A program made the translations under genes and the position numbers. From Candidatus Sungbacteria bacterium RIFCSPLOWO2_01_FULL_47_32 (GTDB lineage: Bacteria; Patescibacteriota; Minisyncoccia; Sungbacterales; GWA2-42-14): a stretch of 64,000 nt of DNA. Under the pieces are notes generated by a model that searched no databases, was not told where the DNA came from, and was given only the letters and a program-made list of their open reading frames with translations. The DNA lies in assembly GCA_001820685.1 (NCBI GenBank), contig MHQP01000018.1, forward strand, positions 13,881-77,880. The letters run 5' to 3'. Below, piece by piece: positions 367-41,300 of this stretch (position 1 is the stretch's first letter; each line of letters opens with the position of its first letter).

Positions 367-1671
367 ATGCATACCGTTGATTTAGACCTGAATATGGACC
401 GCCTTACCAAAGTTGAGGGTTCTGCCTCGCTTGAAGTAAAAATACGTAACGGCAAGGCGGAGAAGGTTCACTTTAAAATAACCGAATATAAAAGATTTTT
501 TACCCAGGCGATGCAAGGGAAGCCGCTTGTTGCGATTCCGCAGCTGCTTGCCCGCATCTGTGGCACGTGTTCGAACGCTCATCTCCTGGCAAGTATTGAG
601 GCGTGCGAAAGTGCTCTCGGGATAGAACCGACCGAGCAGACGAATATTCTTCGGACTCTTACAATGTACGGCTTGAATATCCGGGACCACGCTCTGCACC
701 TGTACCTTTTTTCAATGCCTGATATCGTCGGAAAAGACGCGTTTCTTGACTTTGACGAGAACAATGAATTCGAGCACCAGATGCTCCATGACGGGTTTCA
801 AATAAAAGCCGCGGGCAATTTTCTTGCGACTCTAGTTGCCGGACGCAGTGTTCACGCGGTTTATCCCGTTGTCGGCGGATTCATTCATTTTCCGGAAAAA
901 GCCGGGGTAGGAGAGGCGATTCAAAAACTTGAAGCGGCTCGCCCTGCCGTACTCCGCCTGATCAATGTTTTTAAAGATGCTCCCTTCCATTTTGACCGGA
1001 AAACAAATTTTATGGCGCTTGTTCCGATGGGGGGCATGTACGGGTTTATTCATGGATGCATCAACACCGGCAAGGGCGAATGCGTCCCAAAAGAGAATTT
1101 TGACGGCTTTTTGGAACGGGTCGTTGTTCCATATTCGCAGGCATCCGGCTACAAGCATAAAGAAGAATCCTATATGGTTGGAGCGCTCGCGCGCATGAAT
1201 TTGGCAAAAAATTTGCTACATCCCTTGACCAAAGAAGCGCTTGGCGCGACGCTTGACCTTTTTCCGTCAACGGATATTTTCCGAAATAACCTTGCGCAGG
1301 CGATAGAAATTCTTCACGCGCTTGACCGTTCCATTGAGTTATTGCGGGTGAACAATTTTGTTCCCGAGTCGGTAATTAAAAAGCCGCCGAGAGAGTCGGT
1401 CGGGGTTGGGGTAATCGAGGCTCCGAGGGGAACGCTCTATCATAAAATTTTTCTTGGAAGCGACGGGGTCGTCAAAAAAGGAGAAATCGTAGTGCCCACC
1501 GGGCAGAACCAAGTAAATATTGAGGAAGATATATATCATTTAGTCAACGAGCTCCTCCCCGATGCGCCGAAAGAAAAGATGCAATTCGAGATAGAAAAAC
1601 TTATCCGGGCATACGACCCATGCATGAGCTGTGCCACACATTTCCTCAAGGTTGACTGGAACGAAGCGTAG
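367..1671 (+). CDS. NiFe hydrogenase large (alpha) subunit
   Basis: N-terminal RICGTC (L1 motif) and C-terminal DPCMSCATH (L2 motif) are the Ni-binding cysteine pairs. 434 aa. Ends with a 9-aa extension after the His, consistent with processing by a maturation protease. Confidence 0.9.
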   Translation: MHTVDLDLNMDRLTKVEGSASLEVKIRNGKAEKVHFKITEYKRFFTQAMQGKPLVAIPQLLARICGTCSNAHLLASIEACESALGIEPTEQTNILRTLTMYGLNIRDHALHLYLFSMPDIVGKDAFLDFDENNEFEHQMLHDGFQIKAAGNFLATLVAGRSVHAVYPVVGGFIHFPEKAGVGEAIQKLEAARPAVLRLINVFKDAPFHFDRKTNFMALVPMGGMYGFIHGCINTGKGECVPKENFDGFLERVVVPYSQASGYKHKEESYMVGALARMNLAKNLLHPLTKEALGATLDLFPSTDIFRNNLAQAIEILHALDRSIELLRVNNFVPESVIKKPPRESVGVGVIEAPRGTLYHKIFLGSDGVVKKGEIVVPTGQNQVNIEEDIYHLVNELLPDAPKEKMQFEIEKLIRAYDPCMSCATHFLKVDWNEA

Positions 1672-4225: not shown

Positions 4226-6373
4226 ATGAAAAAACAACCTTTTTTAATTTTTGGATTACTTGCCGGAATGGGTTTCATGGGAAGTCTATTGTTTGCTCTT
4301 GTGTCGTTTGCGAGCCCAATTCCTATGGTTCAGGCGGAAGTAGAGCGAATTGCCGTGGGTTCGTCATGGACGACAACTGTGCAGCCGATGAGCGCGTTGA
4401 GACTGGTTGCGCGTATTACCGGAGACGTACCGGCCGGCGGGAACTATGCAATGGAAGTATACGTGAACGGCAAGCCCGTGATCTCATCTCTTTTGAATAA
4501 AGGCGCGAGTTTTACGTTTAAAGACGGCCGGACCTTTCCTTACCGGTCGGAGAACGGCTGGATGCTGTTTTACAGCCAGAATTTTTCCGTGAATAATACC
4601 GCAGCGAGCGGGGGGTATCAGGTACTCACTGATCCCGGACAGGCTTATTTATACGAATGGAACATATCATCTCTTGTCGGCGGCGCGTCGAGCATGAAAC
4701 TGGAAATTAAAAATAACGGCAAAACAGCCGGAAGGCAGATCCTCGTTCAGGTCTTGAGCAGATATCCGATCGCCGAATTGGGAAATTGCGGCGACGAAAA
4801 TGCTTGCAGGGATTATTGCGGAAAACAGGCAAATTATGCCGCATGCTCGGATTACGGCGCGAAAAATAACATAATTTCTCCGGAAGACGCAGAGAAGGCC
4901 AAGAAGTTCGCCGATGTTTTGAACGGAGCGGGTCCCGGCGGATGCAAAGACGAGGCTTCCTGCCGAAGTTATTGCGAGGGCGTTGCTCACTTGGAAGAAT
5001 GTATTTCTTTCGCTCAAAAACATAATTTTGCAAGCGGGGACCAGTTGGCTGAAGCGCAAAAAGTTTTGAGCGCGCTCAAAAAAGGCGCGACACTTCCGGG
5101 CGGCTGCACGGATAAAAATTCCTGTGAATCATATTGCAAGGACTCGGCCCATGTCGAAGAATGCCTTTCGTTCGCAAAAAAAGCCGGTTTTATCTCCGAC
5201 CAAGAGGCCGCTGAAGCGGAAAAGGTCCTGCCATTCATAAAAAGCGGGCAGACACCGGGTGGATGCACTACCAAAGCGGATTGCCAGAAATTCTGCGATG
5301 ATTCAAGCAACAACACGGAATGCGTCAATTTTGCCGAGAAGGCGGGATTCATGAGCAAGGAAGACGCAACTATGGCGAGGATTACCGGCGGAAAAGGCCC
5401 GGGCGGGTGCAAGTCAAAGGATTCCTGCGAAACATACTGCAACGCAAAAACGCACCAGCAAGAATGTTTTGACTTTGCCCAGAAATATAATCTAATTCCA
5501 CCCGATAAGCTGAAAGAGATGAGGGAGGGCATGGGCCGGCTTCGTTCCGGTTTGGACCAGATGCCGCAGGAAGCGATTTCGTGTCTTAAGGACAATCTTG
5601 GGCAGGATATTGTCACGAAAATTCAGGACGGGTCTTTTACTCCCGGACCGCAAACCGGGGATACCATCAAGGGCTGTTTCGATAAGGTCATGCCCCAACT
5701 TCAAGCCAAATTAAAGCAGGGATTGGATCAGGCGACACCGGCCGCATTGCAGTGCTTGCAAAACGGCCTCGGTGAAGACGGGCTTCAAAAAATTAAAAAT
5801 GGCGAAGCGCCAACCCCGGAAAACGGAGATGTTCTCAAAAAATGCTTCGGAGCAATGAAATCGGAAGGGATGAACAAGCTTAAGAACGGTTTAAGTAAGA
5901 TGCCACCGGAAGTGAGATCTTGCATAACTGAAAAACTCGGCGCGGACACAGTGCAAAAAATACAAAGCGGCGAGGATGTGAATATCGGCCCCGAAATCGG
6001 ATCGGCCATGCAGGAATGTGCGAAGGCAGGTGTTGCGGCGATGCAGCAGAAAATGGATGAAGGATTAAAAAGCGCCCCGCCGGAAATCAAAAGTTGCGTA
6101 GAATCAAAACTTGGCAGCATGAGCGCAAAGATGCAAAGCGGAGAACTAAGCGGCGAGGCGGACGTTCAGAAATTGATACAAGAATGCGTTTCTAACTTTA
6201 AGCCGGCAGGAGGCATGCCGCCGCCAGGAGCCGGCGGAGAAACCGAAGGTAACCCGCCCGCGGGATTTGCGCCAACTCCGGAGATTTGCTCTCAATTCCG
6301 GTCCGTTCCTTCGTGTTCCTATGTACCCGCCGGCACAGCCCAAGACATGTGCAAAAAGTGCAAAACGGAATAG
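4226..6373 (+). CDS. secreted modular cysteine-repeat protein of unknown family
   Basis: 715 aa. Signal/TM at the N-terminus, an ~185-aa N-terminal domain, then five ~50-aa 4-Cys modules (GPGGC-x5-C-x3-C-x8-C-x2-FA-x-K-x-NF) and four ~40-aa 2-Cys modules (P-x-E-x2-SC-x3-LG-x-D-x3-KIQ-x-G...C). Cys-rich C-terminus. Confidence 0.8.
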   Translation: MKKQPFLIFGLLAGMGFMGSLLFALVSFASPIPMVQAEVERIAVGSSWTTTVQPMSALRLVARITGDVPAGGNYAMEVYVNGKPVISSLLNKGASFTFKDGRTFPYRSENGWMLFYSQNFSVNNTAASGGYQVLTDPGQAYLYEWNISSLVGGASSMKLEIKNNGKTAGRQILVQVLSRYPIAELGNCGDENACRDYCGKQANYAACSDYGAKNNIISPEDAEKAKKFADVLNGAGPGGCKDEASCRSYCEGVAHLEECISFAQKHNFASGDQLAEAQKVLSALKKGATLPGGCTDKNSCESYCKDSAHVEECLSFAKKAGFISDQEAAEAEKVLPFIKSGQTPGGCTTKADCQKFCDDSSNNTECVNFAEKAGFMSKEDATMARITGGKGPGGCKSKDSCETYCNAKTHQQECFDFAQKYNLIPPDKLKEMREGMGRLRSGLDQMPQEAISCLKDNLGQDIVTKIQDGSFTPGPQTGDTIKGCFDKVMPQLQAKLKQGLDQATPAALQCLQNGLGEDGLQKIKNGEAPTPENGDVLKKCFGAMKSEGMNKLKNGLSKMPPEVRSCITEKLGADTVQKIQSGEDVNIGPEIGSAMQECAKAGVAAMQQKMDEGLKSAPPEIKSCVESKLGSMSAKMQSGELSGEADVQKLIQECVSNFKPAGGMPPPGAGGETEGNPPAGFAPTPEICSQFRSVPSCSYVPAGTAQDMCKKCKTE
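4787..5498 (+). repeat. five tandem 4-Cys protein modules (coding repeats) inside the 4226-6373 CDS
   Basis: aa 188-425: CGDENACRDYC...C; GGCKDEASCRSYCEGVAHLEECISFAQKHNF; GGCTDKNSCESYCKDSAHVEECLSFAKKAGF; GGCTTKADCQKFCDDSSNNTECVNFAEKAGF; GGCKSKDSCETYCNAKTHQQECFDFAQKYNL. Confidence 0.75.
5561..6188 (+). repeat. four tandem 2-Cys protein modules (coding repeats) inside the 4226-6373 CDS
   Basis: MPQEAISCLKDNLGQDIVTKIQDG...C; ATPAALQCLQNGLGEDGLQKIKNG...C; MPPEVRSCITEKLGADTVQKIQSG...C; APPEIKSCVESKLGSMSAKMQSG...C. Confidence 0.7.
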
Positions 6374-6477: not shown

Positions 6478-6565
6478 CCCGCCATAATTCGCCGTGAAGA
6501 GGTTTCCCGGCGTGCTTTTTTTGCGAAAAAATGATATGGTTTTTGTGTATTCGCGTTTTACAATT

Positions 6566-8080
6566 ATGCATAACATTCCAATTCGAAATTTAACCATAGC
6601 TGATTTTATTGGCATGAGCGGACCAAAAACCCGCCTGTATCTTGAAAAGTCAGCTGGTTCAAAAATCAATCGCGTCGCCTCATCCCTTCAAAAGCTTATC
6701 GGCGCCGGTAAAATTATTTACGGCGTAAATACCGGGGTGGGGGACCTGTGCGATGTTACTCTTCAGGGAAAGGATTTGTACCGCCTTCAAGAAAATATTA
6801 TTTTAAGCCACGCGTGCGGTTCCTCTCCATATCTCGAAGAACGCGTAAGCCGCGGGGCTTTATTTTTGATTATTAACTCGCGCTCTAAGGGTTTTTCCGG
6901 AGTTACGGCGGAACTTATTCGAAAACTCGTTATTCTTTTTAATAACAATGTTTCCCCTCTGCTTCCCGTCAGGGGGTCTTTGGGAGCGAGCGGCGATCTT
7001 ATCCCAATGGCTCATTTAGGGCTTTTGCTTCTTGGACAAGGTAGCGCCATGATGAACGGCAAAATTGTTCCGACAAAAAAAATATTGCACCGTCTTCGCA
7101 TTTCCAATCACGTGTTACAGCCCAAGGAAGCCTTGAGCCTGATAAACGGAACCGATGTTACGACCGCGCAGGCCGCGTTTACCCTGGAAAAGGCTAAAAA
7201 ACTTTTATTTTTGTCAGCGCGTCTGACAGCAGTCATCTTTGAGGTTCTGGGCGCTTCAAAGAAAAGTCTTGACTCGGACTTGCATTCCCTGAAGCCGCAT
7301 GTGGGGCAAGTAGCCATTGCTCGGCTTCTCAGAAAGTTTCTTCATGGAAGCAGACGTTGCGATCGGCCGAATAAGAAAATTCAGGCTTCGTATGTAATTC
7401 GCTGCGCGCCGCAGATTGACGGAGCTATTTGGGAGCAAATTGAAAAAGCAAGGGACGTTGCGGAGGTTGAATTGAATTCCGTAACCGATAACCCGCTATT
7501 TTTCCCATCCGGAGCAGGAGTGAGAGTAGCCTCCGGAGGAAATTTTCATGCCCAGAATTTGGCTTTTTCGCTCGATTCCGCCGGAATCGCTCTTGCCGCA
7601 TTCGGAAAAGTTGTTGAGAGAAGAATTGAAAGATTGCTGAACTCCTCGCTATCCGGCTTGCCGCCGTTTCTTGCGCATGACTTCGGATTGAATTCCGGCC
7701 TCATGATTCCGCAGTATCTTGTTGCCGCGCTTGTTGCCGAAAATTTGGTTTTAGCTCATCCGGCAAGCATTCAATCTCTGCCGGTATCTGCCAACCAGGA
7801 AGATTTCGTATCCATGGCCATGACTGCTGCAACAAAAGCTGAAAAAATTCTTGAAAATTGTGAAAAAATATTGGCCGTGGAGATTTTAACAGCTATTCAG
7901 GCGATGGATATGGCGAAAGATGCCAATGGACGCGTTTTTTCCGACTTTAGTCCTGCAGCAAAAACTCTTCACCGGAAAACGAGGGCTATTGTTTCGGAAC
8001 TCAAAAACGACAGGTGGCTGAGCAAAGATATCGAAGTGTTAACGGAATCAATTCAAAACGGCTATTTTCATTATGACTAA
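6566..8080 (+). CDS. hutH: histidine ammonia-lyase
   Basis: GSLGASGDL MIO-forming Ala-Ser-Gly motif and GVNTGVG. Start chosen at the Met (6566) giving about 504 aa; the ORF extends to 6494. Confidence 0.9.
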   Translation: MHNIPIRNLTIADFIGMSGPKTRLYLEKSAGSKINRVASSLQKLIGAGKIIYGVNTGVGDLCDVTLQGKDLYRLQENIILSHACGSSPYLEERVSRGALFLIINSRSKGFSGVTAELIRKLVILFNNNVSPLLPVRGSLGASGDLIPMAHLGLLLLGQGSAMMNGKIVPTKKILHRLRISNHVLQPKEALSLINGTDVTTAQAAFTLEKAKKLLFLSARLTAVIFEVLGASKKSLDSDLHSLKPHVGQVAIARLLRKFLHGSRRCDRPNKKIQASYVIRCAPQIDGAIWEQIEKARDVAEVELNSVTDNPLFFPSGAGVRVASGGNFHAQNLAFSLDSAGIALAAFGKVVERRIERLLNSSLSGLPPFLAHDFGLNSGLMIPQYLVAALVAENLVLAHPASIQSLPVSANQEDFVSMAMTAATKAEKILENCEKILAVEILTAIQAMDMAKDANGRVFSDFSPAAKTLHRKTRAIVSELKNDRWLSKDIEVLTESIQNGYFHYD

Positions 8081-9041
8081 ATTATTGAAGAAATCCACCG
8101 CGGCCATTTATGAGAAGCAGTCTGATTTGGACGACCTGCGCCTTAAAAATATTGTTGCGAATTGGGATGGGAGAACAAAAATTGATATCGGAATAATCGG
8201 AATACCTTTTGATTATGGTGTGCAACTTTCAGGAGGACGGCCGGGGGCCGCACGAGCGCCTGACACCATCCGCAGCCAGCTTAAGCGATACGGGACGGCA
8301 TGCAATAGTGAAAAGAAGGCGGACCTGTCTAAATTAAAAATTGCCGACCTCGGAAATATGAAAGTTTTTTTCCGGGACAGTTTGCGGACCTATGCGGCTG
8401 TTATCGGCGTAATGGCAAAAGCTTATGATGGATTGGTTGACACGATTATCGCGCTTGGAGGAGGAAACGATATTACATATGCAACGGTTTCGGCACTCCA
8501 AAGGAGCAGAAAGCAAACTCTCGGAGGAATGAGTATTGATGCGCATTTTGACGTACGAAGTACGCGGGGCGGAAAGATCACAAGCGGAACCCCCTATCGC
8601 CGGCTGATTGAGGATAAGATTCTACCCGGAAATAATTTTTGGGAAGCAGGAATTCAGGGACAGGTCAATTCAGTTATTCATGAGCGCTGGCTTAAAAAGC
8701 AGGGTGCGAAAATAGTTTCTCTCTCCGAGATAAGAGAAAAAGGGGTTATTGCCGAATTTAAAAGCTTTGAAAAGGCAACTCGGCGCTGTAAGATGATTTT
8801 CGTCAGCATCGATATTGATTCTGTCGCTCAAGCATTCGCCCCGGGCTCAAGCGCCCCCAGCCCCGACGGCCTTTTTCCGGAAGACATTCTGCAGTTCGCG
8901 TATTTAGCCGGACTTAATCAAAAAGTAAAACTTTTTGAAGTTGTTGAAGTTAATCCGCGTTATGATGTTGATAATAGAACGAGCAGGCTGGCTACAAATA
9001 TTGTTATCCAATTTTTAACAGGCCGCTCACTAATAAAATAA
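8073..9041 (+). CDS. hutG: formimidoylglutamase (arginase/ureohydrolase family)
   Basis: Ureohydrolase motifs (SIDAHFD, SIDIDSV, GGGND-like). Sits between hutH and hutU; ATG overlaps the hutH stop. Confidence 0.75.
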
Positions 9042-9043
9042 CT

Positions 9044-10780
9044 ATGAATTCTTGTTCATGTGATATTAAAGAGGAATTGGAAAAATACGGGCGGCCGATG
9101 CACATGGCTGAACGACCCGCCTTTCCCATCAAAGCTAGCACGGGGCCCGAAAAAGAATGCAAAACCTGGGACACAGAGGCGGCACTGCGAATGCTCTATA
9201 ATAATCTCGACCCGGATGTGGCGCTGAAACCGGAAGAGCTTATTGTTTACGGAGGTGCCGGGCGCGCGGCGCGTAACTGGCATGAATTCAATAAGATAGT
9301 TTCAGCGCTCAAAGACCTTCGCGAAGACGAAACTCTATGCATTCAATCCGGAAAACCGGTTTATGTCGCTCCGACCCATAAAGACGCTCCGCGGGTAATT
9401 CTTGCTAATTCCAATATTGTGCCAAGGTGGGGTACACAGGAAATTTTCAATGAATACGACCGCTTGGGCCTTATGATGTACGGGCAGATGACCGCCGGTT
9501 CCTGGATTTACATCGGGACACAGGGAATTTTGCAGGGGACATACGAAACCTTTAGGGCGTGCGCTAAAACCAACTTTGGCCAGGATTCGCTGGCGGGAAA
9601 ATTTGTTTTGTCCGCCGGCATGGGATCAATGTCCGGAGCGCAGCCTTTGGCGGTAACCATGAATGAGGGGGTTTTACTTGATGTGGAAGTAAGAAAGGAG
9701 CAGATTGAAAAAAAAGTGCGCGAAGGATACTGCGATATGTTGTCGGAAAATTTGGACGAAGCGCTGCGGCTTGTAAAGGAAGCGGTTGATATGCGTATTC
9801 CTCGTTCCATCGGGCTTGTCGGGAACGCGGCGGAAGTTCATACGGAATTGTTACAGCGGGGGATAATTCCGGATATTGTAACCGACCAAACGCCTGCGCA
9901 TGACATTTTAAGCTATGTTCCGACCGGAGACCTTAACGAGCTTGACCTGTTACGAGTAAAGAACCCGAAGGAATATGAGCGAAGAGCCCGCGAATCAGTC
10001 GTTATGCATGTTTCGGCAATGCTTGAGATGCAAAAGCGGGGAGCGATTGTTTTTGATTACGGAAATAATCTTAGAATTCAGGCGGAGGAAGGGGGGCTTG
10101 TCGTAAAAAACGAACAAGGAGAATTTTTGTATCCCGGTTTTGTACCTGCCTATATCCGGCCTCTTTTTTGCGAAGGAAAAGGTCCGTTTCGCTGGGCATT
10201 TTTGTCCGGCAAGACGGAGGACCAGCGCCTTGTTGATGATCTGCTTTTAAAGACGTTCCCGGAAAACATCGGGCTGAAGAGGTGGGTCGAGAAAGTTCAG
10301 AAAAAAGTTCCGGTTATCGGATTGCCAACGCGAATTTGCTGGCTTGGATACGGAGAACGGGCAAAGTTCGGTTTAGCGTTAAACGACCTTATCAGCTCGG
10401 GCAGGGTTTCGGCTCCGGTTGTTATCGGACGCGACCACCTTGATTCCGGGTCGGTGGCTAGTCCGTATCGCGAAACCGAGGGAATGAAGGACGGGTCTGA
10501 CGCGATTGCTGACTGGCCCCTGCTTAATTTTGCGCTTAACACCGCCAACGGCGCTTCTTGGGTCTCTTTTCATCACGGCGGAGGCGTTGGGATAGGAAAT
10601 GCATTGCATGCAGGTATGGTGATTGTGGCGGACGGAACCAAAGAAAAAACTAAGCGTCTTGAGCGGGTTTTGACGGTTGACCCGGGAATAGGAGTTGCGC
10701 GCCACGCGGACAGCGGTGAAGAAAGAGCTATTGAAACCGCAAAAGAAAAAAATATTAAAATACCAGGCCTGACATGCTGA
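9044..10780 (+). CDS. hutU: urocanate hydratase
   Basis: 578 aa with [10 protein letters not shown] (NAD-binding) and typical urocanase length. The N-terminal 19 aa are uncertain (alternative Met at 9101). Confidence 0.9.
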
Positions 10781-12039
10781 TCATCAAAAACGCACATGAG
10801 CTTGTAACATGCCGCTCATTAGAAAGCGGTCCGAACGCCGGCAAAAATTTCAGCACCTGTTCCGTTATTAAAAATGGGGCTCTTGTTGTTGACGGAGAAA
10901 AAATTGTTGCCGTCGGAAAAACAGAAAATATTCTGGCACGGTTTAAGAAAAAATGGGCTAGCCGTATTTTTGACGCTTCTGGAAAAATTATTCTGCCGGG
11001 CTTTATTGACAGCCATACCCATTTGGTTTTTGCCGGCTCCAGAGCCGAGGAATATCGATTGAAGCTTAAAGGACAAAGCTACAAATCACTTCATAAAAAA
11101 AAAGGCGGAATTCATTTTACGGTGGGAGAAACCAGGAGGGCGAGCGAAGATGAACTTTTTTTTCAGGCGAAGGATACTCTTGAGCGAATGTTCCGTTTGG
11201 GAACGACTACTGTTGAGATAAAAAGCGGCTATGGCCTGACGCCGGAGGACGAGCTTAAAATTTTGCGGGTTATTAAGCGGTTGAAAAAGACGGCCAAACA
11301 AGATATTGTTGCCACATTTTTAGGAGCGCATACAGTGCCGTTAGAATATCAAAATAATCGTTCTGCCTATCTGAAATTAATTATTGAAAAAATGCTTCCG
11401 GTGGTGTGGGCGAAGGACCTGGCTGAATACTGCGATGTTTTTTGCGACCCGCTCGGTTTTACCGCCGGAGAGACAACGGCAATTTTTTCTGAAGCAAGAA
11501 GATTGGGATTTAAGTTGCGCATTCATGCCGAACAAACCGCTCATTTCGGCGGTGCTGCCGTAGCGGCGCGATATAAGGCGGCAAGTGCTGACCACTGCGA
11601 TTTTTTGAACGATTCCGATATCGGATACTTAAAAAAGAGCCGAATACCAGTCGTCCTTCTTCCCGGGGTGCTTTTGCATCTTATGGAGTGGAAAAAAATT
11701 CCGTATTTTCAGGAAACAGTAAAAAAAATAAAAAAAGCCGATGTGGCTTTAGCTTTGGCCACCGATTATAATCCTGGTAGTTCTCCTGTTATATCCATGA
11801 AGCTTGTCGCGGATCTTGCCTTGCGTTTTTTCCGCATGGATTATCAGGAATGCTTGAATGCGGTAACTATTAACGCCGCGTATGCCTTAAACCGCGCGTC
11901 AGAAGTGGGGAGCATTGAACCCGGCAAGCAGGCCGATATTCTTATAGTTGACGCTTTGAGCATGAAGGACTATTTTCACGGGCCCGGTGACGGCAAGATT
12001 GATTATGTAATAAAAAAGGGTTTGATGAATAAAATATAG
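10774..12039 (+). CDS. hutI: imidazolonepropionase
   Basis: Amidohydrolase with [16 protein letters not shown]; about 420 aa; overlaps the hutU stop by 7 nt. Confidence 0.9.
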
Positions 12040-12528: not shown

Positions 12529-13506
12529 ATGTTCATAGACGACATCACAATTAAAGTTCGGGCTGGAAGTGGCGGAAGAGGCGCTGTTGCGTTCAACAAA
12601 AACCTTCATCAATACGGCCCGGCAGGCGGATCAGGCGGTGAGGGCGGCGATGTTTATGTTGAAGGGGTATCAAACCTCGGTATTTTGAGTAAGTACCGTT
12701 TTAGCAAAGAATTTTATTCTGAAAACGGCCAGGACGGCAGAGGCCAGTTTTGCGATGGAATCAATGCGGAAGACTTAACGCTTTATGTCCCGGTAGGAAC
12801 GGTCATCCATAACCTTACAACGGGGAGCAGTTTTGACATCACATCGATCGGCGAGCGCGTGTTGCTCGCGCGCGGCGGAAGAGGAGGCAAGGGGAACTTC
12901 CTTTTTCGCTCCTCCACAAATACAGCGCCCCGGCAATTCAAGTTCGGAACAGAAGGCGAGGCGTATATATTCCGGTTTGAGTTGAAGCTTATTGCCGATG
13001 TCGGGTTTATAGGACTCCCGAACGTCGGTAAATCAAGCCTGCTGAATGAGCTGACGGCGGCTAAAAGCAAGGTCGCGAATTATTCCTTTACTACTCTTGA
13101 GCCAAATCTTGGAGTGTATTTTGAACTGATACTTGCCGATATCCCCGGTCTGATAGAGGGGGCTTCCGGCGGAAAAGGACTCGGTATCAAATTCTTGCGC
13201 CATATTGAACGCACCAACATTCTTTTTCACATTATTTCGGCGGAGTCCGTGGACCCATACGCGGATTACAGGGTCATCCGAAAAGAGCTTGGGGCATACA
13301 ACAAGACCCTGCTCAAGAAAAAAGAATACGTATTTTTTAGCAAGAGCGACATGATTGTGCCCGCTGAACTGAAAAAGAAAATTTCTTTACTGAAGAAGCG
13401 GAAGCTAACTGCCCGGGTCTTTTCCATTCACGATTTTGAAAGTATTGAGAAAGTTAAGAAAATTTTAAGAGCGCTGATAAAAAAGAAGTATAAAAAACTA
13501 AAATAG
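12529..13506 (+). CDS. obg: GTPase Obg (short form lacking the C-terminal domain)
   Basis: N-terminal Gly-rich Obg fold (RAGSGGRGAVAF...GGSGGEGGDVY), G-domain motifs GLPNVGKSS and DIPGLIEGA. Confidence 0.9.
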   Translation: MFIDDITIKVRAGSGGRGAVAFNKNLHQYGPAGGSGGEGGDVYVEGVSNLGILSKYRFSKEFYSENGQDGRGQFCDGINAEDLTLYVPVGTVIHNLTTGSSFDITSIGERVLLARGGRGGKGNFLFRSSTNTAPRQFKFGTEGEAYIFRFELKLIADVGFIGLPNVGKSSLLNELTAAKSKVANYSFTTLEPNLGVYFELILADIPGLIEGASGGKGLGIKFLRHIERTNILFHIISAESVDPYADYRVIRKELGAYNKTLLKKKEYVFFSKSDMIVPAELKKKISLLKKRKLTARVFSIHDFESIEKVKKILRALIKKKYKKLK

Positions 13507-17859: not shown

Positions 17860-18125
17860 CTGACTACTGGGACGTTATCGTCAAAACGCTATCACTTGAA
17901 AACTGACGCTACTCGGAAAGCTCATCCTGGTAAAGAGCCGAAAAAATGAGTAATTGAGCTTTTTGACAGTCTATATTTCCTAACTTCATAAAAAATTGAA
18001 ATTTTGGCTCTTTTACTGGGTTTTTAGTATCGGTAAAGAGTGGATTACTCTGTTGAAGTGTTCTCATGTTAGGTTTATCATAAGGAGAGAAGCGGGGATT
18101 TAGCGCTTACAAGTTATAAACACAT

Positions 18126-19328
18126 ATGGCAAAAAGGAAACCTTTTTTGAAGAATAATTTTAAGAAACCAGTGAAAGTAAAGCCGAAAAGAATGCCAAAG
18201 GCTAGTGCGATACGAGCGCAAAGGAAAAAGATAAAACAAAAGAAAATTTTTCAAAAAAAAAGATTCGCTGGAGTAAGAACGCCCCGCGACGTTATACTTA
18301 TTAAAAAAGATCATGACGGACGTCTCGTAAAGCCGGGTGAAAACCCGATCCTTTCTCCCCGGCGCGAACACGATTGGGAAGCTTATCAGACATTCAACCC
18401 CGCCGCTATATTTGAGGGGGGAAAAGTGCAATTGCTCTATCGTGCGTTGGGAAGCGACGGAGTATCCCGCCTAGGACACGCCGAAAGCACGGATGGTATC
18501 ACTATTGACTTTCGTTCGGACAAACCGGTTTTTATTTGTGGACGACGCCCCGAAAAAGATAGCGCGGTTTCCTATGAGGCAATGCAGTATATTTCCGGGG
18601 GAGGATGCGGAGGATGCGAAGACCCGCGCCTTACTGTGATAGGCGATACGGTATATATGGTATATGTATCATTTGACGGATGGAGTCCGCCGCGGATCGC
18701 ACTTACTTCAATTAAGCTTGACGATTTTCTTGCTAAACGCTGGAAGTGGGCAGGTTCAAAAATAATCTCTCCTCCAGACGTTATCGACAAAAGCGGATGT
18801 TTGTTTCCCGAGATTATCCGGGGGAAGTATGTTATCTTGCACAGGATATTTCCCAATATTCTCCTTGACTATGTTGACGATCTTGAATTCAAGCACGGAA
18901 CTCATCTGAAAGGAGAATATACTATTCCTGTTCGTAAAAATAAATGGGACAGCCGAAAAATCGGCGCCGGAGCACCTCCTCTCAAGACAAAATACGGCTG
19001 GCTTCTTATTTATTATGCCGTGGATAATAAAGACGCCTCTCAATATAAAATAGGAGCGATGCTCCTTGACCTCACGCATCCGGAACGCGTCATTGCCCGC
19101 TCGGATGCTCCAATACTGGAACCGGCCGAATGGTATGAGAACGCCGGACATAAGGCCGGTGTTGCGTACCCATGCGGAGCAGTCGTGATGAACGGAACGC
19201 TTTTTGTGTACTATGGCGGAGCCGATACGGTTGTCTGCGTCGGAACGGTAAACCTCGATACGTTCATCGAGGCTCTTATGAAAAGCAAAACTCCAAAACT
19301 CAAAAAACACAAGTCAAAAATGAAATGA
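18126..19328 (+). CDS. GH130-like glycosidase/phosphorylase with a ~60-aa polybasic N-terminal tail
   Basis: ENPILSP...FNPAAI...LLYRA...GCEDPRLT motifs of GH130/DUF377 five-bladed propeller enzymes. The N-terminus MAKRKPFLKNNFKKPVKVKPKRMPKASAIRAQRKKIKQKKIFQKKRF is about 40 percent Lys/Arg. Confidence 0.75.
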   Translation: MAKRKPFLKNNFKKPVKVKPKRMPKASAIRAQRKKIKQKKIFQKKRFAGVRTPRDVILIKKDHDGRLVKPGENPILSPRREHDWEAYQTFNPAAIFEGGKVQLLYRALGSDGVSRLGHAESTDGITIDFRSDKPVFICGRRPEKDSAVSYEAMQYISGGGCGGCEDPRLTVIGDTVYMVYVSFDGWSPPRIALTSIKLDDFLAKRWKWAGSKIISPPDVIDKSGCLFPEIIRGKYVILHRIFPNILLDYVDDLEFKHGTHLKGEYTIPVRKNKWDSRKIGAGAPPLKTKYGWLLIYYAVDNKDASQYKIGAMLLDLTHPERVIARSDAPILEPAEWYENAGHKAGVAYPCGAVVMNGTLFVYYGGADTVVCVGTVNLDTFIEALMKSKTPKLKKHKSKMK

Positions 19329-21238
19329 GCATAGCTCGCCGCTCCGATGAAAACCCGATATTGCTTCCCAACAAAGACCATCCGTGGGAAGCGGAGGCAG
19401 TTTTCAACTGCTGTCCGGTTCGAAAAGGCCACACCATCAATCTTTTATACCGTGCGGTTTCTTCTCTCCATTTTCATGCCGAGGCGGGAACGCAACTTCG
19501 CGTGTCGTCCATCGGGCTTGCCGAAAGCAAGGACGGCATACATTTCAAAAAACGAAGACAATTTATTTTACCGGAAGAAGATTGGGACCGCTACGGATGC
19601 GAAGACCCCCGCGTTACAAAGCTCGGGGATAAATATTATATTTTTTATACGGCGCTCTCTCGGTTCCCACTTTCTCCGGAAGGCATACGCGTAGGAGTTG
19701 CGATAACTAAAGATTTCAAAAAGATCGAAAAACATCCGGTAACGCCGTTTAATTCGAAGGCAATGGCGCTCTTTCCGGAACGCATTGGCGGAAAGTACTG
19801 GGCGATACTTACGGCAAATACCGATATGCCTCCGGCGCGCGTTGCGCTCGCCTCTTTCGAACGGGAAGAAGACATATGGTCGGCGATGCATTGGGCGGAT
19901 TGGTACGCCTCGCTTGATTCTCATGTCCTTCCGCTTCAGCGTTCTCACGAGGACCATATCGAGGTCGGCTCGCCCCCCGTCAAAACAAAGCACGGGTGGC
20001 TTGTCATTTATTCCTACATTCGGAATTATTTTTCTCCGAATAAGATATTCGGCATTGAGGCGGTTTTGCTCGACCTTCAAAATCCCATGCGTATCATCGG
20101 GCGAACGAGTGCCCCCATCATGGTACCGGAAGAAGAGTACGAGAGGTACGGGGAGATACCAAACATCGTTTTTCCGTCGGGGGTTCGCTTTGAAAAAGGT
20201 AGAGTTCATATTTACTATGGGGCCGCAGATTCAACATGCGCCGTCGCGTCGTTCAAACTGACCGAGCTTTTGCGTGCAATGTTTCCTCCAGAGCGCAAGG
20301 AGGCGCATTTTAAACGACCTCCGGAAAACCCTATATTGAAGCCTATTCCGGAACACGCCTGGGAGGCAAAAGCAGTTTTCAATCCGGCGGCGGTCGCGAT
20401 TGGTGGGAAAATACATATTGTCTATCGTGCGATGTCCGAAGACAACACGTCCGTTTTTGGACACGCCATGACCGTTGACGGCGTACACATCGCAGAACGC
20501 GACGTGGAACCGATATACCTTCCGCGCGAAGAATTCGAGCGCAAGCTTCAGCCGGGAAATTCCGGCTGTGAGGACCCGCGCCTCACAAAAATAGACAGAA
20601 AAATTTTTATGCTCTATACAGCTTTTGACGCAAAAAACCCTCCGCGGGTCGCTCTTACGTCCATTTCAGCCGACGATTTTGAGAAAAGGAAATGGAACTG
20701 GTCGCGTCCAATTCTCATATCTCCTCCCGGGTTAGATGACAAGGATGCATGCATTTTTCCGGTGAAGTTCAATCGAAAATATATTATATTCCACCGTATC
20801 GGACGAAGTGTCGACCTCGCGTTAGTTGATGACCTTGAGTTTAAAAAAGAACGGCCGTGGCTGGAGGAGCATAAGTGGCTCATGCCCCGAAGAGGTTCCT
20901 GGGACGGGGAGAAGGTCGGCATTGCGGCCCCTCCGGTCAAAACAAAGCACGGATGGGTGCTCTTATACCACGGCGTTTCGGATATCGACCACTGGTATCG
21001 TGTTGGGGCATTGTTGTTAGACAAGCGGAACCCGACAAAAATTCTTGCAAGAACCCTTCACCCGATATTTGAGCCCGAGATGCCGTACGAAAAAACGGGG
21101 CAAGTTGCTCATGTTGTTTTTCCGTGCGGGAACGTCGTGCGCAAAGAGAGCATATACATATACTACGGCGGAGGGGATTCGGTGGTGGGAGTCGCATCTA
21201 TTGAAATACGTGCTCTTATGAAAGCGCTTGGAAAGTAA
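19325..21238 (+). CDS. protein with two tandem GH130-like modules
   Basis: Start at the ATG overlapping the upstream TGA (ATGA). Module 1 carries ENPILLP...FNCCPV...LLYRAV...GCEDPRVT; module 2 (from about 20290) carries ENPILKP...FNPAAV...IVYRAM...GCEDPRLT. Confidence 0.75.
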   Translation: MSIARRSDENPILLPNKDHPWEAEAVFNCCPVRKGHTINLLYRAVSSLHFHAEAGTQLRVSSIGLAESKDGIHFKKRRQFILPEEDWDRYGCEDPRVTKLGDKYYIFYTALSRFPLSPEGIRVGVAITKDFKKIEKHPVTPFNSKAMALFPERIGGKYWAILTANTDMPPARVALASFEREEDIWSAMHWADWYASLDSHVLPLQRSHEDHIEVGSPPVKTKHGWLVIYSYIRNYFSPNKIFGIEAVLLDLQNPMRIIGRTSAPIMVPEEEYERYGEIPNIVFPSGVRFEKGRVHIYYGAADSTCAVASFKLTELLRAMFPPERKEAHFKRPPENPILKPIPEHAWEAKAVFNPAAVAIGGKIHIVYRAMSEDNTSVFGHAMTVDGVHIAERDVEPIYLPREEFERKLQPGNSGCEDPRLTKIDRKIFMLYTAFDAKNPPRVALTSISADDFEKRKWNWSRPILISPPGLDDKDACIFPVKFNRKYIIFHRIGRSVDLALVDDLEFKKERPWLEEHKWLMPRRGSWDGEKVGIAAPPVKTKHGWVLLYHGVSDIDHWYRVGALLLDKRNPTKILARTLHPIFEPEMPYEKTGQVAHVVFPCGNVVRKESIYIYYGGGDSVVGVASIEIRALMKALGK

Positions 21239-21896: not shown

Positions 21897-21925
21897 TAAA
21901 AAGGATCCCCGAAAGGGGATTTTTA
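21897..21925. terminator. bidirectional rho-independent terminator between convergent genes
   Basis: AAAA-ggatcccc-gaaa-ggggat-TTTT (21903-21920) with A/T runs on both sides. Confidence 0.6.
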
Positions 21926-22393
21926 TATTACAGTTCTCATGGCAAGAGATAGTATAACGCCATTGAGCAGAAGTCCTATCGCGACAGCCGTCCAACCGCT
22001 CCAGAGAAGTGTCGTGATCCAAGCAGCGACATTAAGGCCGTGAGAACCAAATCCCGCTCCGACAAGGCCTGCGATGAGCGAGTGCGATTTACTGATAGGG
22101 TAACCGTTCCGCGCGGCAATAAGTCCCCAGAGGATAAGCCCAATCATGGCGGCCGCAATGGTTTTGAGATTGATATGCGAAACATTAACGAACCCTTTGC
22201 TGATGGTTGCGGCAACCGCAGTGCCGCTGGTGGCACCCGCGACGTTCATGACGACTGCAATCATAATTGCGATACGCGGAGGAAGAACGGACGTTGAGAC
22301 AACCGTTGCGATCGCGTTCGGCGCATCTGTCCAGCCGTTGATAAATTCAGCCATTAGGACAAGGAAGAGGACGAAGAGAAGTCCTGCTTCCAT
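21923..22393 (-). pseudogene. inorganic phosphate transporter PiT family, N-terminal half only (likely gene remnant)
   Basis: EFINGWTDAPNAIATVVSTSVLPP matches the PiT N-terminal signature (F.NG.HD.ANAIAT), but the ORF is only 156 aa against ~330 for PiT proteins. It ends directly at the terminator. Confidence 0.45.
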
Positions 22394-22395
22394 GC

Positions 22396-22656
22396 CTATA
22401 GTTTCCGCGATATTGACTTGACGACGTCCGCCACATTTTCACAATGGTCGGTTGCTTCCTCAAGCTTCTCAATGATATCTTTCCACTTGAGAAACATCCG
22501 GTCATTCACCACAGGGTCGGTATCAAGCGCCTCAAGGGCTCTGCGTTTGACGGTGTTTGCTATATGATTGACAAAGTACCCGTGGAACTTAGCATCGTGG
22601 GAATTGCGGAACATGCCTTCGAGCATTCCCATCTCCAACGCCGAATTTCCGACCAT
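22396..22656 (-). pseudogene. PhoU-like DUF47 phosphate-transport regulator, C-terminal half only (likely gene remnant)
   Basis: 86 aa resembling the C-terminal half of ~205-aa DUF47/PhoU-like proteins (…WKDIIEKLEEATDHCENVADVVKSI). Only 25 nt separate it from the divergent glycosylase gene, so the N-terminal half is absent. Confidence 0.45.
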
Positions 22657-38378: not shown

Positions 38379-41300
38379 ATGATGAAAAAAGTTCCAAAGT
38401 TTTTAAAGAAAGCTTCAAAATCTATTCTTATATTTATGCTCGCGGCGGGCTGGGGTTTTTTTGGCTGGCCGCAATTTTCAGGTTTTCCGCAAAAAATTCA
38501 CGAGGCTAAAGCCAGCCCGGGAGCGCGCGCCAAAACCGTAGAGATTCTTGCCGGGCAGTATGCCGGAGACGGCCTGGGCGGCCAGAATTCAAATACCAAT
38601 CAGTCATTCGCCGAATCAAACTTCAATCTCGCGGAATCAAGCGTTTCGGTAAAAAACGCTTTCGTGGTTGTTGAAATGCAGTTAAACGGCGCGGCGGACC
38701 GTGGCAATGCAACCGGTCACCTCCTCTCCTTTGACGCCTGCGCCAACCCCTGCACTGCCGACCCTTGGGCTGGCTCTGGCAGAGTGGAAGACAATCAGGG
38801 TTCAACCATACTGCAGTATCAGGATATAACCGGCGCCATGTATGTTCGGCTATTGATTGATGTGACCAAAGAAACCCAGCTTGCGGCATATACAGGTAGT
38901 GATAGCACCATGGATTTTATGGTTGGCTATCGGGTTAATAACGGCGCTACCGCCGCCACGATTGATTCTGCCAAAGCCAAGCTCTTTATCACCTACACCT
39001 ATGACGACACTTCAGCAAGCATCACGAATACTGTTATATATCCTTTAGAATCAACCGCTTCGGGCGATCAAGGGACAAGGCGCGCGTCCCAAGCAAGCGC
39101 CTGCACCAAAGGCACCAACTGTCCGACCTTTACCTACAACATGGACACCGCGGAATTTTCGGAAAAAATTTCCCAGTGGTTTGAGGTCGGCGGGTTCAAT
39201 GACCTAAACAGCGGCACCGATGTTACCCGCAATATCAATATCGAGGGCACGGACGTGGATTCTTCCACTTTCTATCATGAAGCGGCGCAGGCTTCTGGTC
39301 AGGGCAACTGGTCGCAGGCCTGGTGGTCAGGCGTTTCCGGCTTTGCTGAAAACACGGCCCAAACTCTGGAGCACTACTTTGCCGCCGGCACCCAGTATCT
39401 TATCGGTGGCGAGGTTTTTGAGACATATACCGCTTCTTCAAGCGCGGCAACCAAAACCCGGACAATTTCTTTTCCCATCGGTGTTATTACCAATGACATC
39501 CTCTCTACCGGAGTGGACTATTCCGCCACCACCACGGTTTATTTTGCCGAATCTGGAGTTTCTATCAAAAAGGCCTGGTTGAGAATTTTGGAAACGGGTG
39601 ACGACGCAACCGGCGCCCACACATTTTCCGTCAAAACCGAAGTTGGCGCGAACGCCCAATCCGCCGCCTCGGTCTATAATCAGGACACGCCCGCTGTCAT
39701 GATTATTATGACAAACCCAATTATTCATGTCATTCCTTCTTCCGATTACACGGAATTAGCGGCGGCAACCGCGTCTTCGGGCAAAGATGTTGGAGTGGCA
39801 GTGCAGTCAAACAGTGCGGAAATTGACGGCGTTTCCGCCGAGCTCATGATTACTTACACCTATACCGGAGAGGCAAACGGATATTTAACTTCTTTGGCTT
39901 CATTCGCGGGCCAGACCGCGACTGCCGGAGTTAGCCAGAGCGAAACATTGTCCAATATGGCGACCTCCACCCTGCCGGAAACTACCGGCGCTAAAACCAT
40001 GCGAGCCGCGGCTTTGAGAGCAAGTTACGCGGCATCAGAGTCAACCGCGGCCATGCTCCAAAGCGATAGTTTTACGGTTGATACTAATTTGTCCACCGGC
40101 TCTCCCACCTGTTCCAATGCGTACGAGAGCGCCACTGACCTTGCCGATGCGTATATGGAGTTTTATAAGCTTGTAACCAGCGCGATGAATACCACTGACG
40201 GACAGGAATACAGCGTGTGTTACACCAACGACGGCGCGGGGGACGCCCAAACCGGCGCCAAAATGAACGGCTGGCTAATTTACACTTATCAATGGGACGC
40301 GCCACCAAATATTTTTGTCTCTAGTGCAACACCAACGCTTGATGTTCGTGTTCCGCCTAGCAGTGCTACTACGACTGTTCCTGCAATAAAAATACTGGCG
40401 ACCGCCGCAAGCCAGATTACAACGTCAGGTATTCGGATAAATATAGACCCGAATTTCCCCCTTCTGTGGGATGGGGCGTGTTCGGGAAGCACTACCCCGG
40501 CGTTCTCTGGAAGTGCTGCCGGTAAAATTACCGCGGCAAATTCAGGATTTATCTGTTCGAGCGGTTCTGCGCGAACCTTCTATATAGATGTAGACACCAC
40601 ATTCGATTCCGGAGATGATATCATTATTACGAGCGGGGTGTCATGGGGCGCTACTTCAACGGCATTTGCCGCTTCAACGACACTATCGCTTTCTATAGAC
40701 GGCGGGGTAACCAGAGCAAAAACCGCGACATCGTCAATCGCAGTAAAAGGTATCTTGGCGGTTTCAGACCATTCCGCGGGACAAATTACCGACCAATTCG
40801 CCGACATGCTTGAAACCGAAACATCAACATCATCCGAACTTTTCAGATTCAAACTTGCGCCAAATGGCGAATCCGCCTCTACAACGCTAAAGCTGACATA
40901 TACAACTTCCGGCATTGACGACGGGGATATTGCTTCAGGCGATATCTACGTTGATACTGACGCCAACGGCAGAGTAAACGGAGCGGAAGCAACAGCCGGA
41001 TTTAACTGTAGTCCGCCTTCAGGCGGGACAATCACGTGCAACGGCACAACGACCGTAAGTGCCGCGACAAATTATATCTATAAAGCGACAGTCTCAAACC
41101 TTGCAACCGGAGATTCTATAACATTTGACACAATTTCAACTTCCAACGTGGTTGGTATCGGAGCAACAAGCAAAACATATACTTCGCGTCTCACCACAAC
41201 GGCAAGCATGAATTCGGCAACGCATCAGAAATCTAAAATTATTGCTTTTTCATCAGATTATTCTCAAAACTTTCTCTTAGACGGATCTCTTGCCGCTATG

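Follow-up and report, generated by a model that had tools for sequence, protein, structure and literature searches.

A widely conserved two-gene cassette of three divergent GH130 modules, with a polybasic tail on one, in Candidatus Sungbacteria and other Patescibacteria

A 64,000-nucleotide stretch of Candidatus Sungbacteria bacterium RIFCSPLOWO2_01_FULL_47_32 (contig MHQP01000018.1, positions 13,881 to 77,880 of the forward strand, assembly GCA_001820685.1; this whole stretch is the window, and positions below are counted from its first letter) carries two overlapping genes, gene A and gene B, that encode three modules of glycoside hydrolase family 130 (GH130): M1 in gene A, behind a polybasic N-terminal tail, and M2 and M3 fused in gene B. 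A preliminary description of this DNA had recognized the three modules and the tail; our main point beyond it is that the two-gene, three-module arrangement is a widely conserved cassette, and its modules, judged from their sequences, are three distinct clades and not interchangeable paralogs. With a little better than even confidence, we read it as a self-contained, conserved cytoplasmic cassette for beta-1,2-mannosides, in which M3 would be a phosphorylase, M1 a phosphorylase-type enzyme, and M2 a hydrolase, and in which the tail would serve as an electrostatic tether. Family membership, fold, residue patterns, synteny, and the conservation and predicted disorder of the tail are observed or computed; the substrate, the reaction type of each module, and the function of the tail are what we infer.

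A protein search recovered more than 5,800 relatives at an E value of ≤1e-20, of which the named ones belong to the Patescibacteria, or candidate phyla radiation (CPR), e.g., Gribaldobacteria and Levybacteria. The exact sequence of ORF1, the open reading frame (ORF) of gene A, was not on record in an exact-sequence lookup, and a contig with 99% identity came from a groundwater metagenome. We collected loci from exact-protein lookups, a genome scan (6 loci from a single-protein query), and an alignment-based metagenome scan, which was far more productive. In 74 loci, or 61 without redundancy, gene B comes directly after gene A, as it does in nearly all loci with sufficient downstream DNA, and in every case but one the gap between the two genes lies between about −160 and +34 nt. 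When 474 flanking ORFs of 60 loci were clustered, no conserved neighbor family emerged, the best being a generic ABC ATPase present in 9 of the 60, so the gene pair behaves as an autonomous unit. The N terminus of gene A varies among the 61 nonredundant loci: 46 have an extra domain of 170 to 300 amino acids (aa), which is a degenerate GH130 module (PF04041, 2e-13) without catalytic residues, 12 have a polybasic tail, 2 have no addition, and 1, truncated at a contig edge, could not be classified. The cassette comprises three modules, effectively four in most relatives, always with the same internal division of labor, across a large radiation of reduced genomes. The tailed version is also found in metagenome-assembled genomes (MAGs) labeled Saccharibacteria (L012 and L013), and in one cassette (L095, 719-4214) gene A is a transmembrane-helix-anchored variant. 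Both loci without an N-terminal addition are in MAGs labeled Dehalococcoidales, and gene A of one of these (L010, 7269-8528, + strand) ends in a C-terminal DUF5679 zinc ribbon (9.3e-17). Literature searches on GH130 in the CPR, tandem GH130 proteins, and polybasic tails in Patescibacteria returned no paper that describes the cassette or its fusion, M2 site, or tail; CPR GH130 proteins have been remarked on as cytoplasmic, and CPR genome papers touch on them just briefly and treat them as generic "beta-mannoside" enzymes (PMC7143001), while more than 99% of predicted GH130 phosphorylases are single-module proteins (Li et al. 2020, PMC7660257).

The assignment to GH130 is borne out by profiles and predicted structures alike. 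The Pfam Glyco_hydro_130 profile (PF04041, cutoff 26) matches ORF1 in one stretch (2.3e-46, 158.7 bits) and ORF2, the reading frame of gene B, in two (1.6e-103, 346.5 bits), in agreement with the preliminary description, which had placed one module in gene A on the basis of motifs that are seen in its translation (ENPIL, FNPAAI, LLYRA, and GCEDPRLT) and two in a single polypeptide that begins at the overlap of the genes, a start that the orthologs share. Reassignment to GH43, which that description had named as the alternative, was rejected: the GH43 profile reaches only 0.0023, below its Pfam cutoff, as GH32 likewise falls below its own, and for the AlphaFold2 model of ORF1, in which the propeller has a per-residue confidence (pLDDT) of >90, the top 35 Foldseek matches in the PDB are all GH130 (TM-score on target of 0.83 to 0.86), with GH43 (∼1e-9) and Leishmania GT108 (∼1e-8) following after them. 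By sequence, M1 matches PDB entries 9fj8 and 7fip, and the nearest solved proteins for M1, M2, and M3 each are Teth514_1788 and Teth514_1789. ORF2 is modeled with a pLDDT of 92.3 as two all-beta domains with a predicted template-modeling score (pTM) of 0.57, a value at which the relative orientation of M2 and M3 is not fixed by the model and a fixed M2-M3 pseudo-dimer is not established. The three modules are 31 to 43% identical to one another, which fits their earlier characterization as diverged paralogs.

Residue tables were compiled for 289 near-complete domains by the criteria of Li et al. 2020 (PMC7660257) and Cuskin et al. 2015 (PMC4599007), with BT3780 numbering calibrated on PDB 5A7V. 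Kept in all three clades are the proton-donor Asp (D104 of UhgbMP), the −1 subsite Asn and Asp (D304), Arg59, and the Glu103/Lys150 pair. The proton donor, the −1 Asn, and the −1 Asp fall at D166, N91, and D367 in M1, at D94, N28, and D302 in M2, and at D417, N353, and D618 in M3, such that the catalytic Asp is present in every module, and all three modules, like at least 92% of relatives, carry the NREDK signature. The Glu103/Lys150 pair belongs to the +1 subsite and has been tied to beta-1,2 linkages (Li et al. 2020, PMC7660257; Cuskin et al. 2015, PMC4599007); given this pair and the nearest characterized relatives, the substrates are most likely beta-1,2-linked mannosides.

At the phosphate site, the three modules differ. 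M3 (N353, R368, E416/D417, K473, H490/R491, H549, R559, and D618) belongs to a clade with R168, H231, and an Arg or Lys at the third basic position, the canonical phosphorylase site, and would act as a canonical reversible beta-1,2-mannoside phosphorylase, converting a mannoside and inorganic phosphate to a shorter mannoside and alpha-mannose-1-phosphate and back. The key residues of M1 are E165/D166, K222, H239/R240, and D367, with Tyr297 at the position of the phosphate-binding His. Domains of this type keep R168, have Tyr for His231 in 63 of the 63 members of the subclade and Lys at the third position, and carry an invariant, clade-specific insert with the motif SGGG immediately ahead of the catalytic Glu-Asp; sister subclades have Gln or His at the His231 position. 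Li et al. 2020 (PMC7660257) noted the Tyr-for-His variant in ∼10% of one group of predicted phosphorylases. M1 would be a second phosphorylase-type module, with an altered phosphate site and an extra loop beside the catalytic Glu-Asp. Judging by analogy from the neighboring genes Teth514_1788/1789, M1 and M3 probably prefer different chain lengths or acceptors.

M2 retains N28, R43, E93/D94, K145, and D302 and has a remodeled phosphate pocket, in which T163/A164 replace Arg168, S230 replaces His231, a Gly replaces the third basic residue, and E213 and E245 have been gained; residues 181 to 200 form a helical insert. Across 138 M2-type domains, D104 is present in 100%, R168 has given way to Thr, Ser, Ala, or Gly, H231 to Ser (83%), the third basic residue to Gly, Thr, Ser, or Ala (94%), Y241 to Phe (89%), and G244 to Glu (84%), and phmmer and MAFFT alike place a Glu in the column of BT3780 Glu268. 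Five residues (E213, E245, D94, K145, and D302) never vary among 20 gene B orthologs. The module keeps its proton donor and all its sugar-binding residues, with the basic phosphate ligands swapped for small residues and Glu. Because the sugar-binding and proton-donor residues are strictly conserved while the anion pocket has turned acidic, M2 appears to be catalytic but nonphosphorolytic; it is probably not a phosphorylase but a hydrolase, whose cleavage is most likely hydrolytic, or a transfer onto a water or sugar acceptor, without phosphate, and most likely inverting. Stand-alone M2-type proteins of ∼320 aa are numerous in the CPR, and an extra gene of this kind, lacking the phosphate site and bearing the Glu, lies just upstream of gene A in three loci (L006, 6820-7875; also L007 and L023). 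The earlier proposal of specialized phosphorolysis by three enzymes is thus too simple: M3 has the full set of phosphate residues and the phosphorylase signature, M1 keeps the Arg but has Tyr for the His, and M2, where both are gone and conserved Glu residues have appeared, is probably not a phosphorylase.

A neighbor-joining tree with 200 bootstraps recovers the gene A modules (98%), M2 (99.5%), and the union of gene A modules and M3 (95.5%), and within gene A both the tail-bearing subclade (monophyletic, 99%) and a Saccharibacteria-like subclade (99.5%). Neither protein has a hydrophobic N-terminal segment, so both are predicted to be cytoplasmic, in agreement with the earlier remarks on CPR GH130 proteins (PMC7143001). 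M3, and probably M1, would there work as reversible phosphorylases that yield alpha-mannose-1-phosphate. Mannose-pathway genes stand beside the cassette in three relatives only: a gene for a cupin of the mannose-6-phosphate isomerase-like (PMI) type, 114 to 116 aa long, adjoins it in L001 (7595-7945) and L095, and in the P0059 locus a two-module GH130 gene with a transmembrane anchor has its end overlapped by a eukaryotic-type phosphomannomutase (PMM) gene. The phosphorylase reading is consistent with these neighbors.

The first 70 residues of gene A contain 19 Lys, 8 Arg, 3 Asp, and no Glu, and the tail has a net charge of about +24. Its richest 40-aa stretch has 45% Lys plus Arg and no acidic residue, the highest value in the window (49 proteins, Lys plus Arg 12.3%), with a binomial probability of 3e-7, or ∼0.006 when corrected for all window stretches. 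AlphaFold2 models residues 1 to 62 with a pLDDT of 38 to 50 and without secondary structure, and a Pfam scan of residues 1 to 72 found no domain, the single match (E = 0.029) being spurious. Among 38 distinct ortholog tails, the median length is 47.5 aa (range, 26 to 125) and the median net charge is +18, with a composition of 29% Lys, 10% Arg, 2.3% Asp plus Glu, and 3% aromatics; their pairwise identity is 0.41 versus 0.37 for shuffled tails, i.e., no higher than the control. The tail is thus conserved in composition, not in sequence. Comparable polybasic stretches occur in 12 of 61 gene A proteins versus 2 of 455 flanking ORFs, and their rarity among the neighbors marks the tail as a property of gene A and not of the lineage proteome; polybasic tails as a general lineage trait were rejected on this count and on the 1 of 49 window proteins that has such a stretch. 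The C-terminal 40 residues of an Obg GTPase (12529-13506, + strand), with 38% Lys plus Arg, are the only other terminal polybasic stretch in the window. The preliminary description was right that the tail is real and atypical for a glycosidase, and its character recurs in the orthologs; the term "histone-like" used there is apt for composition only, as Pfam detects no nucleic-acid-binding domain and a transmembrane helix found in the place of the tail hints at a membrane. That helix is seen in a few database orthologs, where it is followed by a basic stretch, and one of them (P0071) is part of a gene A-gene B cassette. We propose that the tail, as an intrinsically disordered polycation in which selection acts on charge rather than sequence, would tether the gene A enzyme electrostatically to a polyanionic surface. 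In an orthologous cassette this position is held by a transmembrane helix with a basic juxtamembrane stretch, and for that reason we rank the inner membrane face first among the candidate surfaces, although this preference over other targets is a weak one.

Several results weigh against this overall interpretation of the cassette. The best NCBIfam model for both proteins is the beta-1,2-mannobiose phosphorylase NF052550, yet its equivalog cutoff of 450 is missed by ORF1 (222 bits) and by ORF2 (439 bits, summed over two modules); the modules are, by these scores, relatives and not equivalogs of the GH130_6 phosphorylases of beta-1,2-mannosides, and the substrate is therefore extrapolated. The window holds no mannose-pathway gene beyond the cassette. 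Gene A is not uniformly phosphorylase-like, because the Saccharibacteria-like subclade has Ser or Gly at Arg168 (L008, L009, L011, L012, and L013), with His231 kept, and the enzyme may not be a phosphorylase there. At the second base position of BT3780 (Glu227), M2 has Ala or Val and not Glu, and its placement next to BT3780 and 4ONZ in the tree has a bootstrap of only 29.5%, so its assignment as a hydrolase draws on site chemistry; a common ancestry of M2 and the Bacteroides hydrolases is not supported at that value, and their likeness may reflect convergence. For the tails, hydrophobic moments computed for stretches of 11 and 18 residues at angles of 100 and 170 degrees gave no amphipathic periodicity (mean z of ∼0 versus 200 shuffles), aromatics are few (3%), and nothing in the sequence specifically favors a membrane over nucleic acid. 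One tail-less relative bears the C-terminal zinc ribbon instead, and in most relatives the tail is replaced by the dead GH130 module and not by a membrane anchor.

Other explanations of the enzymes were weighed against the same evidence. M2 could be a noncatalytic pseudoenzyme that supplies an oligomer interface or a glycan-binding site to M3; GH130 enzymes do act as oligomers, gene A of most relatives bears a clearly dead GH130 module at the equivalent position, and the pTM of 0.57 leaves the intermodule geometry free. We regard this as very unlikely, as M2, unlike the dead module, has kept its proton-donor Asp in 138 of 138 domains together with the −1 and +1 residues (Asn, Arg, Glu, Lys, and Asp), and the newly fixed acidic residues in the former phosphate pocket point to an active site under selection. 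Another alternative holds that the cassette makes and turns over an intracellular beta-1,2-mannan as a reserve, analogous to the mannogen of Leishmania, with M2 as a strict sugar-nucleotide-dependent mannosyltransferase (synthase) and M1 and M3 as phosphorylases mobilizing the polymer. All characterized beta-1,2 GH130 phosphorylases show weak GDP-mannose (GDP-Man) transferase activity (PMC12814180), loss of the pocket Arg accompanies transferase-only enzymes in GT108 (PMC10913872), the enzymes are predicted to be cytoplasmic, and the cassette is autonomous, with no transporter conserved beside it. The binding of GDP-Man by Uhgb_MS, however, requires the basic residues K184, R202, and R242 for the diphosphate, and M2 has lost all three basic positions and gained two conserved carboxylates, which would repel a nucleotide diphosphate; moreover, GT108 transferases keep a His, not Thr or Ser, at the Arg position, and we found no paper on beta-1,2-mannan in CPR organisms, so this account seems unlikely to us. 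A related and similarly improbable idea is that many CPR members keep a cytoplasmic pool of beta-1,2-mannan or mannoside, either a mannogen-like reserve or a membrane-proximal glycoconjugate, that the cassette cycles: M1 and M3 may build and mobilize the pool without ATP through reversible phosphorolysis and weak nucleotide-sugar transfer, M2 may be an independently evolved phosphorylase-to-hydrolase conversion that trims or primes chains, and the gene A enzyme may be brought to the surface at which the polymer is made by its tail, or by the transmembrane helix or dead module that relatives have instead.

The tail likewise admits readings other than a membrane tether. That it is an annotation artefact of a start called too far upstream is so improbable that we rejected it: although a database protein with 99% identity is called from a later GTG (385 aa), that call still keeps 55 tail residues, and tails are present in 38 distinct orthologs. 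ORF1 opens two codons past an in-frame stop, and since no ATG, GTG, or TTG lies in frame between M22 and the domain, at least ∼49 tail residues must be translated. Binding to nucleic acid (nucleoid, RNA, or ribosome), which would sequester or concentrate the gene A protein on a polyanionic polymer, is a tentative possibility that we find doubtful. The tail is Lys-rich with Ser, Thr, Ala, and Pro and, being almost free of aromatics and of amphipathic periodicity, resembles H1-like or ribosomal-protein tails, the zinc ribbon of the tail-less relative could be taken in the same sense, and the only other strongly basic terminus in the window is that of Obg, with its Pfam "50S ribosome-binding GTPase" domain; but the Pfam scan detected no known nucleic-acid-binding domain or motif, DUF5679 has no assigned function, the one element seen to take the place of the tail directly in an orthologous cassette is a transmembrane helix, and it is not obvious why an enzyme acting on mannosides should be located on nucleic acid. 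We think it rather unlikely that the tail has no binding function and, as a remnant or spacer of low complexity that stayed behind when the dead module was lost, is tolerated or mildly useful for solubility or for initiation on A-rich codons. The nesting of the tail-bearing subclade among dead-module lineages, the lack of sequence conservation, and the short basic stretches with which dead modules often start would all suit such a remnant, whereas the charge composition has been held across a clade with 99% bootstrap support and a second, separate subclade, acidic residues are nearly absent (2%), lengths of up to 125 aa go far beyond what initiation needs, and comparable stretches are rare in neighboring proteins (2 of 455).

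The features of the locus are listed in the table below. The only long coding frames of the region are ORF1 and the ORF ending at 21238, whose open frame runs from 19172 and holds the in-frame ATG at 19325; gene B orthologs begin at the equivalent Met in the alignment, and 19325 is therefore the correct start of gene B. Positions 19320 to 19330 read atg aaA TGA gc, with the TGA of ORF1 (19326-19328) overlapping the ATG of ORF2 (19325-19327). A KKPKLK-like consensus is present at the C terminus of gene A in the orthologs. The A9 run within the tail-coding region is a potential slippage site, at which a frameshift would remove the GH130 domain. A promoter consensus scan of the region gave 8 sites of the kind listed upstream of ORF1 versus 5.4 expected by chance.

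Table 1. Features of the GH130 cassette and its surroundings, with positions in the window
Feature	Positions	Strand	Basis and remarks
Complete histidine-utilization (hut) operon	6494-12039	+	∼6 kb upstream of the cassette
Promoter-like site (TTGAAG-17-TATCAT) within the gap of 266 nt upstream of ORF1	18053-18081	+	Consensus scan; weak
ORF1, gene A	18126-19328	+	400 aa; tail of ∼67 residues plus one GH130 module
Polybasic disordered N-terminal tail, gene A aa 1-67	18126-18326	+	Composition, AlphaFold2, orthologs
A9 homopolymer run inside the tail-coding region	18253-18261	+	Sequence (caaaaaaaaag)
Module M1, GH130 beta-propeller, gene A aa 68-390	18327-19295	+	Pfam, PDB matches, AlphaFold2, Foldseek, residues
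Short basic disordered C terminus of gene A (KSKTPKLKKHKSKMK) plus stop codon	19296-19328	+	Translation; pLDDT of <50 for residues 392-400
ATGA start/stop overlap, coupling gene A and gene B	19325-19328	+	Sequence; a tight junction is the rule in relatives
ORF2, gene B	19325-21238	+	637 aa; two GH130 modules (M2 and M3)
Module M2, gene B aa 1-322, GH130 with remodeled phosphate site	19325-20290	+	Residue tables, alignments
Module M3, gene B aa 326-637 plus stop, canonical GH130 phosphorylase signature	20300-21238	+	Residue tables; pLDDT of ∼92

Elsewhere in the window, the hut operon encodes an aromatic amino acid (histidine) ammonia-lyase, an arginase-family formiminoglutamase-like protein, urocanase, and imidazolonepropionase and is a notable catabolic route for a CPR-like genome; its presence weakens the earlier suggestion that the organism has few other catabolic routes. 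An ORF at 367-1671 (+) matches the nickel-dependent hydrogenase large subunit (PF00374, 2.5e-28, two stretches) and is NiFe-hydrogenase-like, and the window also carries cell wall and division genes. Two large ORFs, at 38379-41819 (+; 1,146 aa) and 4226-6373 (+; 715 aa), have no Pfam match at 1e-5, and their hydrophobic N termini suggest export. Immediately downstream of the cassette lies an apparently truncated PiT/PHO4 phosphate transporter ORF of 156 aa that covers profile positions 1 to 139 of 350 only (21923-22393, −), preceded by an 86-aa ORF (22396-22656, −) with a DUF47/PhoU-like C-terminal look but no Pfam match; both may be pseudogene remnants, located right after a cassette of phosphate-using enzymes. 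Scans of the window for tRNAs and Rfam families found nothing. The hut operon, the hydrogenase-like gene, the wall and division genes, and the PiT ORF have no bearing on the cassette itself.

The cassette has several implications. CPR cells that carry it probably depend on a specific beta-mannoside, which could be host derived, environmental, or a self-made reserve. It would also represent a second, possibly independent, natural case of a phosphorylase site rebuilt in a hydrolase-like manner, which would be useful for enzyme engineering. Finally, one position of one enzyme is alternately filled by a polycationic tail, by a transmembrane helix, or by a dead domain, a natural experiment that asks what such appendages do.

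Disordered polybasic tails that bind membranes peripherally or bind nucleic acids are known from MARCKS-type basic clusters and H1-like tails, among others. The gene A tail is like these generic tails in its high Lys and Arg content, near absence of Asp and Glu, predicted disorder, and conservation of composition rather than sequence and unlike them in having no lipidation site, few aromatics, no amphipathic periodicity, and no recognizable domain; we found no literature report of a polybasic tail on a GH130 enzyme. For the modules, the best match in sequence and structure is the Teth514_1788/1789 pair of Thermoanaerobacter sp. X-514 (GH130_6; a 1,2-beta-oligomannan phosphorylase and a beta-1,2-mannobiose phosphorylase; 9FJ8 and 7FIP), which are encoded by neighboring paralogs and prefer different chain lengths (PMC4264767). 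Both systems have in common the catalytic Asp, the Glu/Lys pair for beta-1,2 linkages, the −1 subsite residues, and a cytoplasmic location, although identity is only ∼36 to 37%. The Thermoanaerobacter enzymes are single-module and tail-less and lie in a GDP-mannose/ABC transporter cluster, whereas the cassette fuses two modules, of which one has lost its phosphate site, carries Tyr instead of His in M1, and has neither transporter nor GDP-Man genes linked to it.

M2 resembles BT3780 and BACOVA_03624, the Bacteroides beta-1,2-mannosidases of GH130_3 (5A7V and 3QC2), in having lost Arg168, His231, and the third basic residue, in having a Glu at Glu268, and in keeping the equivalents of BT3780 Asp142, Lys199, Arg89, Asn74, and Asp363. 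It differs from BT3780 in the Ala or Val at Glu227 and in its different second Glu (E245), and from GH130_3 in lacking a signal peptide, in its fusion to a phosphorylase module, and in its closer sequence relation to GH130_6; on these sequence features it resembles a GH130_3 mannosidase but cannot be filed as one. A more distant parallel is offered by the mannogen mannosyltransferase/phosphorylases MTP1-7 of Leishmania (GT108), which share the five-bladed propeller (Foldseek E value of ∼1e-8 with the ORF1 model), form a tandem paralog array in which changes in the phosphate pocket go with a change of reaction, and serve cytosolic beta-1,2-mannan metabolism. They differ from the cassette in belonging to another CAZy family, with 13 to 15% identity, and in being encoded by separate genes and not fusions, with no polybasic tail; and where the GT108 pocket changes from Arg to His, that of M2 has exchanged Arg and His for Thr and Ser and added Glu.

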